Under the pieces are notes generated by a model. It was not told the DNA's origin, made no database searches, and worked only from the letters and a program-made list of their open reading frames with translations. The position numbers and the translations under genes were made by a program. Positions 24,926-59,126 of a DNA stretch of 64,000 nucleotides are shown piece by piece. Numbering within the stretch: the first letter of the stretch is position 1; each line of letters starts with the position of its first letter. Where the stretch lies: positions 58,855-122,854 of IMG/VR virus record IMGVR_UViG_3300027747_004524; one strand, written 5' to 3'. The stretch comes from a virus.

Positions 24926-25135
24926 TTATACATTCTTTGTTACTTCTTTGCTATCAGATCTAATATCCGATCTACTTGATAGCTCACTTCTTAGTACTGT
25001 GATTTCTTTGTCTGCTTCTATTCCAACTCTTACTTTATTCTTATTGTCTATTCTAACAATAGTTATCTTGATATCGTCCATATTTGGACCTCTTAAGATA
25101 ATTGTCTCGTCTTTCTTTCTGCTCAGAACTAACAT
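24926..25135 (-). CDS. csrA: Second, divergent CsrA-family protein
   Basis: MLVLSRKKDETIIL....DIKITIVRID..KVRVGIEA.KEITVLRSEL; AGGAG RBS. Confidence 0.85.
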   Translation of the reverse strand: MLVLSRKKDETIILRGPNMDDIKITIVRIDNKNKVRVGIEADKEITVLRSELSSRSDIRSDSKEVTKNV

Positions 25136-25279
25136 CCTATTTCTCCTTTTCTTTTTCAAGCAGCTAATCTAAATTTTGCTTTAGCACATAAACCCTTTGT
25201 TTGTTTGTGCTTAGTCCTAAATCAATATAGTGGCAGGCTTTTATTTTTCACCTGTTCGCAAAAAAAAATAAACCTTGGT

Positions 25280-26270: not shown

Positions 26271-26302
26271 AACCCTGCTGAGCTTGCTCAGCAGGGTTTT
26301 TT
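26271..26302 (+). terminator. Intrinsic terminator
   Basis: AACCCTGCTGAG-CTTG-CTCAGCAGGGTT plus T-tract. Confidence 0.9.
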
Positions 26303-26870
26303 ATTTGTTGTTTTTAGTGCTTTCCATTAGATCTTTTACATTGTCTTTACAGAAGCCATGCTTGCCTCTTTCAATGAATTCATAGATAACACCTGTTAGT
26401 TGACTTGGCTTTGTAAAAACTTGTGTTAATCCTGGACATGTTAGTGGTTTATTTGAGGAGAACTCTGCATAACCCTTTGTTCGCCATTCTTCCATCGTCT
26501 TCTCTACACTTTCTACCTGATATGCTATATGATGAACTCCTCCTACATTGTCTCTTCTAGCAACCCACTGTCCTACTATAGATTCTGGGTCACCGTCTGA
26601 TACGAATATTTCAGGAGGTAAGTGATATTCGGCAAACTTTGTCTCATCAATATCTCTGTTTGTGTTTGGTCCCACGTATTGTCTTATTAGCCAATGTAAT
26701 TCATCAACTACTGGCTTTTCTGGTGGTTCTAGTGCTATGCACTTAGCACAAGTTCCATCTGCAAAGTTAATGTCGAATTCTGTTTGAATTCTATAGCCCA
26801 ATGCATCAATGAAGAATTGGGCTGTTTTTTTTCTATCCAAGGCTCTATATGCAATGTGGTCTAGCCTCAT
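26301..26870 (-). CDS. VOC/glyoxalase superfamily protein
   Basis: LDHIAY, GGVHHIAYQV, QVFT...GVIYEFIER metal-binding motifs. Confidence 0.8.
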   Translation of the reverse strand: MRLDHIAYRALDRKKTAQFFIDALGYRIQTEFDINFADGTCAKCIALEPPEKPVVDELHWLIRQYVGPNTNRDIDETKFAEYHLPPEIFVSDGDPESIVGQWVARRDNVGGVHHIAYQVESVEKTMEEWRTKGYAEFSSNKPLTCPGLTQVFTKPSQLTGVIYEFIERGKHGFCKDNVKDLMESTKNNK

Positions 26871-27570: not shown

Positions 27571-27620
27571 CGTAGCTCAGTTGGTTATTATTTTTTGATT
27601 AGACCATACTATATAAAAGT

Positions 27621-28187
27621 ATGGAATACGATAAGTTAAAGGGTTATCTTGATAAGAACATGACTCTAAGGCAAATTTCAATCGAAAGCAAAAAATGTCT
27701 TGCTTCTGTTCGTTATTGGATGAAAAAACATGGGTTTAAACCTAATTTTGCGAACTTTAAGGGAGGCTATAAACCTGGTCAAAAAATAATTGGCAATGAC
27801 AGATATTGTCCTTCTTGCAAAGTTTATAGAAACATAAACGATTTTTACTCAAGAAGGAAAACTAACTGCACGGGCTACTGTAAGACTTGTATATCTAAAA
27901 AGACTACTGAACGACAAAGAAAAATTAAGAAGGAGATGGTCGAATACAAAGGGGGCAAATGTCAAAACCCGAAGTGCTCCACGCCAGGAGGATATAGTCG
28001 TTCAATAAATGGTTTGGACTTTCATCATATAGATCCTTTGAAAAAAGAATTTAGTATTTCTCAAATAAGGCTTACTAAGATGAACAAAAAAATTAAAAAA
28101 GAGTTGGATAAATGTATTTTGCTTTGTGCCAACTGCCATAGAGAAAGACATGAAGAGCTGCTTCTTGAAAGAAAAAAAAGCACCTGA
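27621..28187 (+). CDS. Free-standing HNH (homing-type) endonuclease
   Basis: N-terminal HTH-like segment, CPSC/CKTC zinc finger, GGKC...LDFHHIDP..K.F.I...ELDKCILLCANCHRE.H. Confidence 0.85.
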   Translation: MEYDKLKGYLDKNMTLRQISIESKKCLASVRYWMKKHGFKPNFANFKGGYKPGQKIIGNDRYCPSCKVYRNINDFYSRRKTNCTGYCKTCISKKTTERQRKIKKEMVEYKGGKCQNPKCSTPGGYSRSINGLDFHHIDPLKKEFSISQIRLTKMNKKIKKELDKCILLCANCHRERHEELLLERKKST

Positions 28188-28193
28188 AAACAG

Positions 28194-28478
28194 TCCGAGA
28201 GGTGGGGCACGATCCCACAACCCACAGATTATGCAATCCACTTCGGCTTTCGCCGCCAGAACTTCTTCTGTTCGTGGTCTGGACTATGCCTTCACCTTTG
28301 TTGTTGCCAACTTTAGGTGGGTGATTATAGTCTCTACACGTTCCCTTTCGGGCTTCGCTCGGCGTTGGGTCGTCCTTTTGAGACAGGCCGTTCACCGAAT
28401 TTACACCTGACTAACCACCCGTTTCCAGATGGCCGACCCGTAAAAGTCTGTTGCTCTAACCAATTGAGCTACTCTCGG
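28194..28478 (-). tRNA. Intron-containing tRNA(CAU), probably tRNA-Ile2; exons 28478-28445 and 28233-28194; no encoded CCA
   Basis: Spliced form CCGAGAG-TA-GCTC AATTGGTTA GAGC-A-ACAGA CT|CAT AA TCTGT-GGGTT-GTGGG ATCGTGC CCCAC-CTCTCGG-A; all four stems pair. Confidence 0.9.
28234..28444 (-). ncRNA. Self-splicing group I intron (211 nt, no ORF)
   Basis: P1 GACU/GGUC with a U.G pair at U33; P AAATTCGGTGAA; Q AACGCCGAGC; R GTAGAGACTATA; S AAGGCATAGTCC; GNRA loops in P2, P6, P8 and P9; terminal omega-G. Confidence 0.9.
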
Positions 28479-28485
28479 AATGTTT

Positions 28486-29145
28486 TCAGACGCTCTTTTG
28501 TGTGATCACCTCTTCAACCAATGACTCAATTTTTTTCTTTGCAAACTTTTCCAAAGACAGTTCGTTTTTTGCCATCTCTGGAATTATTCTTTGACGAACC
28601 CAATTTCTTCTGCTGCCCTTGACTGCAGAGTTGGTTTCGTCCTCTACAATATAATGCTTTAATTTGTTTCTGTCAACGTACTGTTGAAAATCTTTTTTCT
28701 TCGTTAGAAGAAATGGGTGCACAACCTTATAGTTTGGAAATAGACTCCACAAGGGAATTGGTTCGTGATCTGGTTTCCCCCTGAAACAGTTCAGAAGGTA
28801 GCTTTCAATCCAATCGTTTAAGTGGTGGGCCGTTATTAGAATTCCTTCTTCCTCTTTGAAAATAGTAGAATAGAATTCAACTCTAGCTCTTCTGCATTCT
28901 GATTCTGTGTTTAGATTATTGCCATATCCACAAATTCCTTTTATGTGAAATTCTTCGCAAAACTTTTGGAAATTTTTTTCCATTTCATCGTTTTGTTCTC
29001 TGATTTTGTGGTTAAAGTGTACTCCAACAACCTTGTATCCTTTCCACATTAACCAATGCAAAGATGCTAAACTGTCTACTCCCATAGAAACTGTAACGTA
29101 AACAGTTTTTTCTTTGTTGAGTAATTGCTTTATGATCTTTATCAT
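28486..29145 (-). CDS. tilS: tRNA(Ile)-lysidine synthetase, catalytic domain only
   Basis: PP-loop SMGVDS, HFNHKIR, RR.R..F, TAHHLND..ES.LLN, HPFL, DETN, RN.VR..IIP. Confidence 0.85.
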   Translation of the reverse strand: MIKIIKQLLNKEKTVYVTVSMGVDSLASLHWLMWKGYKVVGVHFNHKIREQNDEMEKNFQKFCEEFHIKGICGYGNNLNTESECRRARVEFYSTIFKEEEGILITAHHLNDWIESYLLNCFRGKPDHEPIPLWSLFPNYKVVHPFLLTKKKDFQQYVDRNKLKHYIVEDETNSAVKGSRRNWVRQRIIPEMAKNELSLEKFAKKKIESLVEEVITQKSV

Positions 29146-29282: not shown

Positions 29283-30554
29283 ATGGCTAAGAAAACTATG
29301 AGTTGCGACTTTTGCGGCAAACCAAACAAGGCGGTAGGAACTTTAATCGAATCACCTTCTTTTGACAAGGAGGTAAACGGAAGACCAAAGGGAACTAATT
29401 TTTTCATCTGCTATGGTTGCGTTGAATTAGCTCATAAGATGGCAAGACAAGACAACAAGAAACAAAACAACCAGCAGAAGCAAACAGAGACTTCGGCCTA
29501 TCCTGTTTCTCCTAATCCCAAAAAAGTTGTTGAGTTTCTTGATCAATATATTATTGGACAAGATTTGGCAAAGAAAACTCTTGCCGTTTCTGTTTGTAAT
29601 CATTATAAGCGTCTTATTTCTCAAGAAGACGATGATGTTAACATTGAAAAGTCTAACGTGCTTCTAATTGGCCCAACCGGATCGGGTAAAACTCTTTTTG
29701 CAAAAACCTTAGCAAAATATTTGAACGTTCCTTTTGCGATTGGAGACGCTACAACCCTAACAGAAGCGGGCTATGTGGGGGAAGACGTAGAGAACCTTGT
29801 TCTAAAGCTTCTTCATGCTTCTGACTTTGATGTTGAGGCCGCACAGAGAGGCATCATTTACATAGACGAAATAGACAAGATAGGCAGAACAAACAATAAC
29901 GTCTCCATCACTAGAGACGTTTCTGGCGAAGGTGTTCAACAGTCTTTGTTGAAGTTGGTAGAAGGAACTGTTTGCAATGTCCCTCCAGCAGGAGGCAGAA
30001 AGCATCCCGAACAACAGTTTATTCATGTTGATACCACCAACATTCTGTTTATCTGTGGTGGTACATTTACTGGTTTAAATGACATAATCAAGAAGAGAAT
30101 TGGTAAAACCGCTATTGGGTTTAACAACTCCTCTTCGGATAATATCGAAGACAAAGATCTCTCATTTCAGGTTGTTGAAGAAGACTTGGTTGAGTTTGGC
30201 CTGATTCCAGAGTTGATTGGTAGGCTTCCTTGCATCACTCCCTTGAAGCAGTTTGACATTGAATCTCTTGTTAGCGTTTTGTGTGATCCGAAGGACTCTC
30301 TAATCATGCAATACAAGAAGCTGTTTAGGTTTGATAACGTGGAATTAGACTTCACAAGGGAAGCTTTAGAGGCTATTGCCAAAAATGCCCTTGATAAGGG
30401 CACTGGAGCTCGCGGCCTTAGAAGTTCTATGGAGAAAATACTCCTTGAACTGATGTACGAAGCCTCCGATCATAGGGGAGAATCGATTGTGATAACCGAT
30501 GGCGTCGTTTTAGGTAAGGAAAAGCCTTGTTTTGCCAAAAATAAGGCTGCATAA
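29283..30554 (+). CDS. clpX: ATP-dependent Clp protease ATP-binding subunit ClpX
   Basis: C4 zinc finger, [47 protein letters not shown] loop, GARGLR. Confidence 0.97.
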
Positions 30555-30566
30555 CTAATTTAAGTT

Positions 30567-31130
30567 ATGCGAGTTTTTACCTATTTCGATAGCAATCTTT
30601 GGGATCTCCACAACAAAGGTTGGCGAAAGCTTGGTAGCATCGATGCTGTGGCATTGATGTCTCCTGACTTAGATGCGGATGACAGGAGGGAAATAGAACG
30701 CTTGTTTCCCTCCTGTCATCTTATTGATACATCTTTCTATGATATGTGCAATTTTATCCTTAGCCAAGTTAAGGACGGCCAAGAGTATTTATTTACATCC
30801 CCTGCCAACTACCCTCCTTTTGAATTTCCCACAAACAAAGATGCATTTTGTAGATCAAAGGAAGACGCTTCTTTAGACCTTAAAATGCAGCTTTCTGAAC
30901 CAATAACAAGTCTTTTGAATAAAGTAGACCTGATAAAAAGCACAGAGGTTGTGTTGGATTCATCCTTGATTTTCGGCACAACAGATTTTTGGGTTGCTTT
31001 TGTCGGCTTCCAGAATTATTTGAAGCAAGCTGGCTACTTTACCAACACAGTTAACGCAAAATATGGTGATTTAGTACTGAGTCTTTTTTATCGTAATTCT
31101 TCTTCCTTTTCTACAGAAATCCAGAAATGA
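30567..31130 (+). CDS. Hypothetical protein
   Basis: 187-aa ORF in the clpX operon. Confidence 0.6.
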   Translation: MRVFTYFDSNLWDLHNKGWRKLGSIDAVALMSPDLDADDRREIERLFPSCHLIDTSFYDMCNFILSQVKDGQEYLFTSPANYPPFEFPTNKDAFCRSKEDASLDLKMQLSEPITSLLNKVDLIKSTEVVLDSSLIFGTTDFWVAFVGFQNYLKQAGYFTNTVNAKYGDLVLSLFYRNSSSFSTEIQK

Positions 31131-31540
31131 CAACCCCTATATTTGTTTATGGAACGTTAAAAAGCGGTCACTCTAGGAACACTCTTCTAAAGGACCAGAG
31201 ATATCTCGGTACAGCATCAACAATTCCAAAGTATAAAATTTACAGATACAGCTCTTTTCCTGCATTGGTTTCTGACGATGATGGTAAGAGCATATTTGGT
31301 GAATTGTATGAAGTTTCTGATTCCTGCTTGGTTGAGTTAGATGAGGTTGAAGGCACAAAGTTTGGATTGTTCTCTAGGGGTACGATTCTTCTGAAAGAAA
31401 CTACATTTTTTTCTTTACCTCTATATAAGAGATCTTCAGACATGCTAATGGAAAACTCTGCGATAGCTTATTTTTTTGTTAACAAGGAAAAATTGTCTGC
31501 TTTAAAAGATTGTGGGAACAATTGGACCATTATGGAGTAG
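31127..31540 (+). CDS. Gamma-glutamylcyclotransferase (GGCT/AIG2-like)
   Basis: IFVYGTLKSG..N, GELYEV, LDEVEG. Confidence 0.85.
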   Translation: MTTPIFVYGTLKSGHSRNTLLKDQRYLGTASTIPKYKIYRYSSFPALVSDDDGKSIFGELYEVSDSCLVELDEVEGTKFGLFSRGTILLKETTFFSLPLYKRSSDMLMENSAIAYFFVNKEKLSALKDCGNNWTIME

Positions 31541-31999: not shown

Positions 32000-32860
32000 A
32001 TGAAAACTCTAAAAGACAGACATAGCAAAGCTAAAAACTATTGTGAGCGTGTTTTTGCTCACGACAACTTTAAAAGCACAAAAGAAGTCAAAAAGTTTAT
32101 ATCTAGAGTTTTTGACTTTTCTTCTCCAAACCTTCTTTCGCAAGAAGATGAGATTATTCTTTTTAAGAAGATGAATTATTTTAAGTTTAAGGCAAAGCGT
32201 TTGCTTGAGGTGGAAGATATTTCTGAGAAGAGACTTTTAAAGGCTGAGTCGTTCATAAAAGAAGCAAAAAATATTAGGAACTTTATTGCTGAGTGCAACT
32301 TTCGTCTTGCTAACCAAGTTTTGAAATGCAATATTTCGTACTATAAAAAGAACAGTTTGGTAGATTCCCTTTTGTCCGATGCCTACTTCGACATCATAAA
32401 GTCTGTTGACTACTTCAATTGGACCCTGGGCAATAGGTTCAGCACTTACGCCACATGGGTTGTTAAGAAAAACTTTTTCAGGGAATCGAAAGAAAACCAA
32501 AAGAGATCCAAAAAAGTTGTTCATCTGGAAGACTTTGATTCTTCTCTTATGAAGGAGGGTGAAAGCTCATTAAAGATAGAGCTTGATCATAAAAGCCATA
32601 AACAGGTGGTTTCAATTCTTCTTTCAATGTTGGAAACAGGAGACTGTGCTAAAGATCAAAAAAGGCAGGTTTTTATACTAGAGCATTATTTTGGCCTTAA
32701 TGGACAAGACGATTGTACACTTGAGGAAATAAGCCACAAACTTGGAATTACTAAGGAGCGAGTAAGACAGTTAAAGGAGAAAGGGCTCGATTGGCTTAGG
32801 GGCCAAATAGCACATATGAATTTAAATTACGATTCTATTTTCGAGTCTGTGAGGTATTGA
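32000..32860 (+). CDS. Sigma-70 family factor (group 1/2-like)
   Basis: LLS.E.E..LF.KMNY.KF, N.RL, F....G.RFSTYATW, YFGL....TLEEI...LGITKERVRQ. Confidence 0.9.
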   Translation: MKTLKDRHSKAKNYCERVFAHDNFKSTKEVKKFISRVFDFSSPNLLSQEDEIILFKKMNYFKFKAKRLLEVEDISEKRLLKAESFIKEAKNIRNFIAECNFRLANQVLKCNISYYKKNSLVDSLLSDAYFDIIKSVDYFNWTLGNRFSTYATWVVKKNFFRESKENQKRSKKVVHLEDFDSSLMKEGESSLKIELDHKSHKQVVSILLSMLETGDCAKDQKRQVFILEHYFGLNGQDDCTLEEISHKLGITKERVRQLKEKGLDWLRGQIAHMNLNYDSIFESVRY

Positions 32861-58490: not shown

Positions 58491-59126
58491 ATGTCTAACA
58501 CAATCAGAGACTTAAGTGAGCTTTTAACACTTTTTGCGGACAACAACTCGAACCAGATTACCGCACAAGATTTAAGAGACCTTATAGTCACAACAGATTC
58601 CTGGAGATTTAGTGGCGACTACAATGATTTGGAAAACCTTCCCACTCTTGGAACCTTAAGCTCACAAAATGCTAACAATGTAAATATAACTGGTGGCAAT
58701 CTAAGCAACATAACAGTATCGGGTTCTTTCAATACAGGTTTAGATCTTTATCCTTATAGCTTTTCTACATCAAAGCTAAGTATTCGTTCTGCTATAGTAG
58801 ACCTTAAACAGATTGCTGAGAATGAAATATTCACGGTGCCAGCAAGTCATATTTTTTTGATTGATAGCATGGAGATCCTAACCACCATTATATCAGGAAC
58901 GAATAATACACTACAAGCAAGGTTTGGAAACAGTATAGATCCACAGGAATATTATCTTCCTTCACAGATCAACAACTTTAATTCTGGAGACAGACATATA
59001 ATTGAGGTTGCTCAAAATGCTTCTCTTTCTGGCACCACAATAACTTTTGGAGTTGTAACCCCATCATCAGCAGACTACCATGAAGGCTTTGGTTTAATTC
59101 ACGGAAGTTTGATAAAAGTTATCTAA
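58491..59126 (+). CDS. Virion-associated protein, short paralog of the fibre C-terminus
   Basis: LGTLSSQNANNVNITGG and a C-terminal domain align by eye with the end of 59228-63055. Confidence 0.75.
   Translation: MSNTIRDLSELLTLFADNNSNQITAQDLRDLIVTTDSWRFSGDYNDLENLPTLGTLSSQNANNVNITGGNLSNITVSGSFNTGLDLYPYSFSTSKLSIRSAIVDLKQIAENEIFTVPASHIFLIDSMEILTTIISGTNNTLQARFGNSIDPQEYYLPSQINNFNSGDRHIIEVAQNASLSGTTITFGVVTPSSADYHEGFGLIHGSLIKVI

Follow-up and report, generated by a model that had tools for sequence, protein, structure and literature searches.

The classical types of group I intron in bacterial tRNA genes are Leu.3Ug, Arg.5Ug, fMet.2Ug and Ile2.5Ug, where "position 2" stands for insertion at CU/CAUAA, and the seed alignment of Williams (2020, bioRxiv 10.1101/2020.01.27.920355) also includes Ile2.2Ug and Met.2Ug examples. 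For phages, a 2014 review placed every intron then known in protein-coding genes, despite the many tRNA genes that phages carry (PMC3984707). Our literature search turned up no report of a phage tRNA gene with a group I intron, and none of a phage TilS-tRNA cassette. Here we describe a tRNA(CAU) gene that is interrupted by a predicted group I intron and lies beside a short tilS-like gene (mini-TilS) in 64,000 nucleotides (nt) of viral DNA, hereafter the window (positions 58,855 to 122,854 of IMG/VR virus record IMGVR_UViG_3300027747_004524). An earlier note on this DNA, made from its letters alone, had implied an unusual insertion site. The site is less unusual than that, since U33/C34 is the classical fMet.2Ug site and Ile2.2Ug is already in the published seed; the intron type and the site are known, and it is the phage setting that is less known.

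The window intron resembles the bacterial fMet.2Ug, Met.2Ug and Ile2.2Ug introns (fMet.2Ug being the classical, cyanobacterial type) in its CU/CAUAA site, in the U that precedes the splice site and in its terminal G. It also shares with the bacterial 2Ug introns a guide of the form GGG(U/C)C that pairs with G(A/G)CU, an IC3-like core, and a three-way P9 domain with an ...GUGGUAAG-like end. It is unlike them in its phage genome, in the coupling of its tRNA to a phage mini-TilS and in having no open reading frame (ORF). A 20-nt word of the intron was found in 62 of 185,579 species genomes scanned; most of the 62 are tRNA-fMet-like genes of the candidate phyla radiation (CPR)/Patescibacteria or Verrucomicrobia-type tRNA(CAU) genes, and in these the split is always at U33/C34. 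Among bacteria, the introns closest to that of the window are about 72% identical to it and come from metagenome-assembled genomes of Blastochloris (L104) and Verrucomicrobia (L059). The nearest relatives overall are phage introns: one in an orthologous tRNA gene (L025, 95%) and two others, L010 in a tRNA-Leu gene (77%) and L011 (75%).

The Azoarcus tRNA-Ile intron, for which self-splicing has been demonstrated (PMC13168695), interrupts the same, here predicted, tRNA species, is of similar size and likewise has GAAA tetraloops in L2 and L9. The core motifs GUGUAGAGACUA, CACCUAA and GAAGGCAUAGUCC are common to the window intron and the aligned Azoarcus-like phage introns. However, the Azoarcus intron is inserted after U36, with a 5' exon of 39 nt and the guide GUG, whereas the window intron follows U33 and has the guide GGGUC; and P9 of the Azoarcus type is a single hairpin plus ACAAACCGG, whereas the window intron has a three-way P9/P9a/P9b. 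The cyanobacterial and plastid tRNA-Leu(UAA) introns (Leu.3Ug) share the IC3 core, the three-way P9 architecture and the 3' end ...AGUGGUAAG, as seen through aligned phage tRNA-Leu introns (L017, and also that of Agrobacterium phage Atu_ph07), but they are inserted one base later (U34/A35) and in another tRNA. The introns of T4 td, nrdB and sunY and those of Twort, SPO1, Jug and crAss-like phages lie in protein-coding genes; the window intron, by contrast, interrupts a tRNA gene, and its lineage is that of the bacterial tRNA introns.

Group I identity and structure of the insert

The tRNA(CAU) gene lies on the minus strand (28478..28194), has a mature length of 74 nt and is interrupted between U33 and C34 by an insert of 211 nt. 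Its 5' exon has the layout CCGAGAG-UA-GCUC...GAGC-A-ACAGA-CU (acceptor strand CCGAGAG, D arm, anticodon-stem strand ACAGA, C32 and U33), and its 3' exon the layout CAUAA-UCUGU-GGGUU-GUGGG-AUCGUGC-CCCAC-CUCUCGG-A (C34, A35, U36, A37 and A38, anticodon-stem strand UCUGU, variable loop GGGUU, T arm, acceptor strand and A73). The joined exons form a clean 7/4/5/5 cloverleaf with the anticodon loop CUCAUAA, which ARAGORN calls tRNA-Met(cat). For a loop of 7 nt, the cut between U33 and C34 is the only frame in which a U precedes the 5' splice site and the intron ends in G. The predicted ligated junction is ACAGACT/CATAATCTGT in DNA and ACAGACU/CAUAAUCUGU in RNA. An intronless allele of the gene on a related phage contig (L031:3165-3239) reads ACAGACTCATAATCTGT (also ...ACAGACTCATAATCTGTGGGTTGTGGGATCGT..., ...GCAACAGACTCATAATCTGTGGG... 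and ...GAGCAACAGACTCATAATCTGTGGGTTGTGGGATCGT...), which is exactly this junction, and the 211 nt therefore admit no other placement. The earlier note had named the same junction beforehand as a test, and its coordinates for the intron (28234-28444) are exact. It had also expected standard tRNA scanners to miss the gene or to miscall it as tRNA-Lys. The gene indeed escapes both ARAGORN at its default settings and the tRNA model of Rfam, and ARAGORN in intron mode reports tRNA-Lys(ttt) with an intron at 37/38, a frame in which the intron would end in U.

In order to establish the class of the insert we relied on covariance models and on an alignment of related introns. The Rfam model Intron_gpI (RF00028) matches 28438..28257 over the full model with 26.2 bits (E 1.5e-4 in a 701-nt stretch, 6e-6 in the 123-kb record). 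A second model, R1, derived from 12 introns of other phage tRNA genes and leaving out those of the window, L025 and L033, gives a single match in the window, full length at 28234..28448, with 134.2 bits (E 6e-31). Both models recover the intron that the earlier note had proposed at U33/C34 and for which it had suggested a covariance-model search. A strict core pattern (GTGTAGAGACTA..CACCTAA..GAAGGCATAGTCC) was found in 17 IMG/VR contigs, each time within a split tRNA gene (17/17). Thirteen of these introns were aligned with the window intron (alignment A1, 14 introns), and RNAalifold recovers P4, P5, P6, P6a, P7, P8 and P9b from the alignment. With the full P2-P9 structure, in which P3 is a pseudoknot, 83.9% of the cells of A1 are paired, compared with 26-41% when the partners are slid. 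Compensatory changes occur in 29 pairs, a number reached by 0 of 500 shuffles; they are seen in P4, P5, P6, P8a and P9b, and P7 and P8 are invariant across the 14 introns. These comparisons identify the insert as a group I intron of IC3 type, compact, at the "2Ug" site and with no ORF inside.

The individual elements are listed in the table. The helices named in the earlier note are right with one exception: the CACCT that it took as the partner of P3 belongs to P8, as its 5' strand, and P3' is in fact formed by the CACC that immediately precedes it, as shown by homology and by L018, where P3 is fully compensated (GCUCCC/GGGAGC). The pairs of P2 are kept in L033 and L025 despite changes from C-G to U-A and from U.G to U-A. 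The guide tracks the insertion site, being GGGUC in all introns at the U33 site and GUG or GAG in introns that follow CAU or CUU. The three-way P9 architecture is common to U33-site and tRNA-Leu-type introns and is not found in Azoarcus-like ones. The introns of the window, L033 and L025 are 95% alike; where they differ, the change falls in a loop or is compensated (C-G to U-A in P2, U-A to C-G in P5a), and the core is unchanged, which argues for a working ribozyme.

Two further matches should be mentioned. A candidate second intron in the record (G000:C1:4876-5057, 12 bits) lies within coding sequence and was rejected as noise. On another contig R1 matches a different group I intron about 0.7 kb upstream of tilS (L046:594-834, plus strand; 52 bits, E 6e-11).

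Table. Features of the split tRNA(CAU) locus and its surroundings. A window coordinate equals 28445 minus the intron position.
Feature	Window positions	Strand	Intron nt	Description
tRNA(CAU) 5' exon	28445..28478	-		34 nt, tRNA positions 1-33; ends ...ACAGACT; read from the sequence and the ARAGORN cloverleaf
Intron	28234..28444	-		211 nt; DNA from TTTACGGG to GGATTG, RNA from UUUACGGG to GGAUUG
tRNA(CAU) 3' exon	28194..28233	-		40 nt; starts CATAATCTGT; no CCA encoded
P1 and internal guide sequence GGGUC	28435..28439	-	6-10	by inspection; exon G30-A31-C32-U33 with G7-G8-U9-C10, U33.G7 wobble at the splice site
P2	28413..28434	-	11-19 / 24-32	9-bp hairpin, GAAA tetraloop; minimum-free-energy fold
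P3 5' strand, J3/4 AAA, P4-P5-P5a and P6-P6a domain	28338..28407	-		RNAalifold and pair counts
P3	P3' at 28323..28320		38-41 / 122-125	pseudoknot; 5' strand GGUG, P3' CACC
P4			47-52 / 81-86	P5 and P5a inside the P4-P6 domain
P6			87-89 / 105-107	
P6a			93-95 / 100-102	GAAA loop
Catalytic core (P7, P3', P8-P8a)	28282..28332	-		alignment A1 and Rfam alignment
P7			113-117 / 159-163	GACUA/UAGUC
P8			126-129 / 149-152	CACC/GGUG
P8a			134-137 / 142-145	GCAA loop; CCUAAAG..CAAAGG motif resembles a tetraloop receptor
P9 three-way domain	28238..28277	-	168-171 / 204-207	P9 CCAC/GUGG encloses P9a (GAAG loop) and P9b (GAAA loop)
Terminal G (omega-G)	28234	-	211	last base of the intron
mini-TilS	28486..29145	-		219 amino acids; PP-loop N-domain only, SMGVDS motif; stop codon 7 nt 5' of the tRNA
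Free-standing HNH endonuclease	27621..28187	+		188 amino acids; convergent with the tRNA
Glyoxalase-fold protein	26301-26870	-		
CsrA	24926-25159	-		
ClpX	29283-30554	+		
GGACT-family protein	31127-31540	+		
Sigma-70-family factor	32000-32860	+		

The mini-TilS gene, the tRNA and their relatives

TilS converts C34 of tRNA-Ile2 to lysidine, and IleRS charges the modified tRNA, which reads AUA (PMC13602947). The product of the gene that precedes the split tRNA is a predicted TilS: it scores 101.1 bits against TIGR02432 (lysidine_TilS_N; cut-off 93.6), matches PF01171 with 6.7e-27, and its closest solved structures are all TilS (1wy5, 3a2k and 1ni5). It matches no PHROG family at 1e-5. A search for close relatives by peptide words, with a single TilS query, returned none; an alignment-based scan found relatives. 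The mini-TilS family, with lengths of about 212-220 amino acids, comprises at least 308 clusters of proteins of about 213 amino acids, many of them on contigs of 170-490 kb, in a search that did not cover longer or fused forms. In the alignment-based scan a tRNA(CAU) gene lies directly 3' of mini-TilS in 15 of the 19 IMG/VR loci with downstream DNA, and the same pair is present in L031, L033, L034 and L035. Four loci (L045, L051, L053 and L054) have mini-TilS and neither a tRNA nor an intron within 1.5 kb. In L016 and L023, too, a distant TilS homologue stands ahead of a split tRNA(CAU) gene, whose intron is Azoarcus-like.

The tRNA is of the elongator type and not an initiator: its anticodon stem ACAGA/UCUGU does not have the three initiator G-C pairs, and C1-G72 is paired. 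In the 123-kb record Ile is encoded most often by ATA, which makes up 46% of the Ile codons and occurs 28 times per 1000 codons. A relative with a 458,813-bp record rated 91% complete (G001, the record of L026) codes for 12 tRNAs, among which the TilS-linked one is the sole CAU tRNA and the remaining set serves A/U-ending codons. The TilS adjacency, the recurrent pairing and the frequency of ATA together indicate that the split tRNA is very probably a tRNA-Ile2, and the proposal in the earlier note that it is a TilS substrate is borne out to the same degree, with the TilS N-domain gene 7 nt upstream and the pair conserved in relatives. G001 also has a tRNA-Ile(UAU) and so may hold two AUA decoders.

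In the T arm of the tRNA (window 28199-28215) the loop reads AUCGUGC, with A54 and U58 in place of T54 and A58. A 22-nt word of the T arm, GGGTTGTGGGATCGTGCCCCAC, was considered as a marker of the split tRNA(CAU) and rejected, because six other viral contigs (L003-L008) carry it unchanged in phage tRNAs whose anticodons are those for Thr, Gly and Lys.

The intron is present in some of these cassettes and absent from others. L033 (TilS 75% identical to that of the window) carries the same 211-nt intron at the same site, and L025 (TilS 58%) a 208-nt intron there, the one that is 95% identical. The gene is intronless in L031 (a 444-kb contig, TilS 72%), in L032 (a short contig with the same sequence as L031 up to its end), in L034 and L035 (TilS 65%; ACAGA-CUCAUAA-UCUGU) and in L026 (a 458-kb contig, TilS 52%). 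Thus the U33-site intron is found in the window, L033 and L025 and is absent from four distinct relatives represented by five loci (L031/L032, L034, L035 and L026). In three further loci (L040:2206-2397, L041:2206-2397 and L049:2875-3066) the orthologous tRNA contains a different, Azoarcus-like intron of 191 nt after U36 (CAU/...G/AA); the cassette has thus undergone two independent invasions, each at a site of its own. The same intron family as that of the window, with the guide GGGUC, also splits phage tRNA-Leu(UAA) genes at U33/U34 (CU/UAAAA; L010:10174-10375 and L018:2401-2595), which is not the classical U34/A35 position. This distribution fits a putative mobile, selfish and dispensable element, an optional passenger that would be tolerated because splicing occurs.

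An HNH endonuclease gene is convergent with the tRNA gene in three phages, namely in the window, in L026 (L026:6805-7350, minus strand) and in L025 (L025:3525-4163, plus strand). The window protein matches phrog_2255 (HNH endonuclease, 2.5e-27) and, weakly, the Pfam HNH family (E 0.004); the L026 protein is 52% identical to it, and the L025 gene comes from a different HNH family. After the tRNA of L033, L034 and L035 there is no HNH gene, and the neighbor in L031 is an ORF of 271 amino acids without a Pfam family. The presence of the endonuclease is independent of that of the intron, as a homologue stands beside the intronless tRNA of L026 and none beside the intron-bearing tRNA of L033. A role as specific homing partner of the intron ("collaborative homing") was rejected for this reason. 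The HNH protein may target this region in rival phages, like SegB in the T4 tRNA cluster.

Proposed mechanism and competing explanations

We consider it likely that the locus is a phage cassette for the decoding of AUA and that a mobile self-splicing intron has invaded its tRNA gene. The tilS gene and the tRNA, on the same strand and 7 nt apart, would be transcribed together. The IC3 intron would then fold, with the guide GGGUC pairing with exon G30-U33 to form P1 with its U33.G wobble. By homology with the known group I mechanism, free guanosine would attack after U33, the terminal G (28234) would next occupy the G-binding site, and the exons, held by the anticodon stem, would be ligated to the loop CUCAUAA. 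The title of Zaug et al. (1993), cited in PMC3984707, indicates that in tRNA introns the exons are aligned by the anticodon stem rather than by P10. An intact anticodon loop would be offered to TilS only after ligation; conversion of C34 to lysidine would change the tRNA from Met/AUG to Ile/AUA, as in homologous systems, and IleRS would charge the product, which would read AUA.

Several observations weigh against this scheme. C4-G69 and C5-G68 in the acceptor stem are determinants for E. coli TilS. They are absent from the tRNA(CAU), which has A4-U69 and G5-C68. Mini-TilS does not have the C-terminal tRNA-binding domains (59 bits against the full-length equivalog model NF007942, cut-off 606), and for a predicted TilS of this form both the activity and the discrimination between tRNA-Ile2 and tRNA-Met are putative. 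Its PP-loop motif is SMGxDS in 23 of 23 homologues (alignment A2), compared with the usual SGGxDS. On the side of the intron, P1 is short (4 bp in the window, 3 bp in L025 and L011) and uses G30 and A31 of the anticodon stem, and no P10 pairing of the 3' exon with the guide region was seen by eye. The Rfam score of 26.2 bits is below the gathering score of 50; the Rfam seed is without bacterial introns, and the working cut-off for tRNA introns is 18-20 bits (Williams 2020, bioRxiv 10.1101/2020.01.27.920355).

An improbable alternative keeps the intron and the junction and takes the tRNA as an elongator tRNA-Met, with the TilS adjacency coincidental or TilS acting on a host tRNA. It would agree with the tRNA-Met(cat) call of ARAGORN, which is made from the anticodon alone, with the variable loop GGGUU and an acceptor stem without the features of E. 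coli tRNA-Ile2, and with the tRNA-Ile(UAU) that already serves AUA in the relative G001. However, the pair of TilS and tRNA(CAU) is kept across TilS proteins that are only 47-75% identical and tRNAs with different stems, and it recurs in the distant L016 and L023. The phage tRNA sets examined are biased to A/U-ending codons, for which an AT-rich phage has a need; no such need exists for extra decoding of AUG, and ATA is the most used Ile codon.

Less probable still is a regulatory reason for keeping the intron, namely that it gates or times TilS and AUA decoding and in this way controls AUA-rich phage genes, in line with the claim of the earlier note that splicing gates AUA decoding. In this alternative the intron is not neutral, and the rate of splicing, through Mg2+, GTP, temperature or a phage factor, would set the rise of AUA decoding; we regard that as similarly doubtful. 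If true, translation of AUA-rich genes would be timed in intron-bearing giant phages. A variant of the idea is that the split gene might shield the tRNA that decodes AUA from attack on the intact anticodon region by an endonuclease or an anticodon nuclease. The gate is favored by the high frequency of AUA, by the 7 nt between tilS and the split tRNA, and by an order of events that allows no alternative, since the 3' exon begins with C34 and P1 ties up U33. That C34 is modified only after ligation is plausible, but this would hold for every bacterial tRNA-Ile2 intron. The same cassette is kept without the intron in the four close relatives listed above, other relatives have an unrelated intron at another site, the same intron family occurs in tRNA-Leu genes, no conserved extra element or protein partner accompanies the intron, and the HNH neighbor varies independently of it. 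From the pattern of presence and absence and from the second site, the gating claim is not supported as a device and holds only as an order of events: the intron adds a processing step, and a regulatory role is unsupported.

We think it very unlikely that the intron is decayed and non-splicing and the tRNA gene dead. The short P1 and the Rfam score under the gathering threshold would point in that direction, but all core helices and junctions are intact, 13 other introns have exactly the same P7, P8 and J regions, the substitutions that separate the window, L033 and L025 fall in loops or are compensated, and the exons are retained as a perfect cloverleaf. A tRNA-Lys(UUU) with a protein-removed intron at 37/38, as in the intron-mode call of ARAGORN, can be dismissed as a most remote prospect, since that frame ends the intron in U rather than G, the insert matches both group I models, the intronless alleles read CUCAUAA, and no protein-based tRNA splicing system turned up in scans and comparisons, none of which searched for one specifically.

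Genomic setting and meaning for giant phages

The source record of 122,854 bp is rated 25% complete, which implies a full genome of about 0.5 Mb, comparable to the relatives of 444-459 kb; it codes for a tail-fibre protein and a phage-type helicase. The gene order ClpX, TilS, tRNA(CAU), glyoxalase is retained in L031, L034 and L035. A sigma-70-like site (28648-28676, minus strand; TTGACA, 17 nt, TATATT; 11/12 matches) lies inside tilS about 170 nt 5' of the tRNA and is a consensus match only. A scan of the locus found no intrinsic terminator; a 5-bp CACCU/AGGUG stem with a U run is present, with a loop that exceeds the rule.

The locus is present in freshwater metagenome DNA contigs from several studies. 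One contig of a second study (X2) covers 27600-28556, that is the whole split gene, with the intron retained and only 3 differences. No joint across the intron, as expected from an intronless DNA form of the source phage, was reported in locus-matching contigs from four DNA runs. In freshwater metagenome contigs of runs X3-X5 the depth at the intron core (28240-28440) is several times that of the flanks. The extra depth consists of partial matches that run into unlike sequence, i.e. introns of other organisms, and many related introns therefore coexist in those freshwater samples.

Split tRNA genes were also observed in named phages and in a larger uncultured one. Agrobacterium phage Atu_ph07 (L027; MF403008.1, about 112.7-113.3 kb) has an unannotated split tRNA-Leu(UAA) (CUU/278 nt/AAAA), with a "hypothetical protein" coding sequence annotated across part of the intron and the 3' exon, and Gordonia phage Daredevil (L029; NC_048021.1, about 41.8-42.1 kb) has an unannotated split tRNA-Lys(UUU) (CUU/238 nt/UUAA). 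In a 595-kb uncultured phage (L028; LR756511.1, 1150-1650) a tRNA-Leu group I intron contains an internal HNH endonuclease ORF that ends just before a P7 strand.

The finding is a phage-borne example of a known intron type within a recurrent phage TilS-tRNA-Ile2 cassette, and no new mechanism is needed to account for it. Standard finders miss the gene or report Lys in place of Ile2, which leads to an under-count of what giant phages can decode, and the same annotation fault affects cultured phages in GenBank, in the tRNA-Leu of Atu_ph07 and the tRNA-Lys of Daredevil. Phage tRNA genes commonly carry introns of the bacterial tRNA-intron lineage, which moves between tRNA-Leu and tRNA-Ile2 genes. 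A one-domain TilS together with its own tRNA would make a compact, portable AUA-decoding module, which could serve as a minimal system for TilS recognition.

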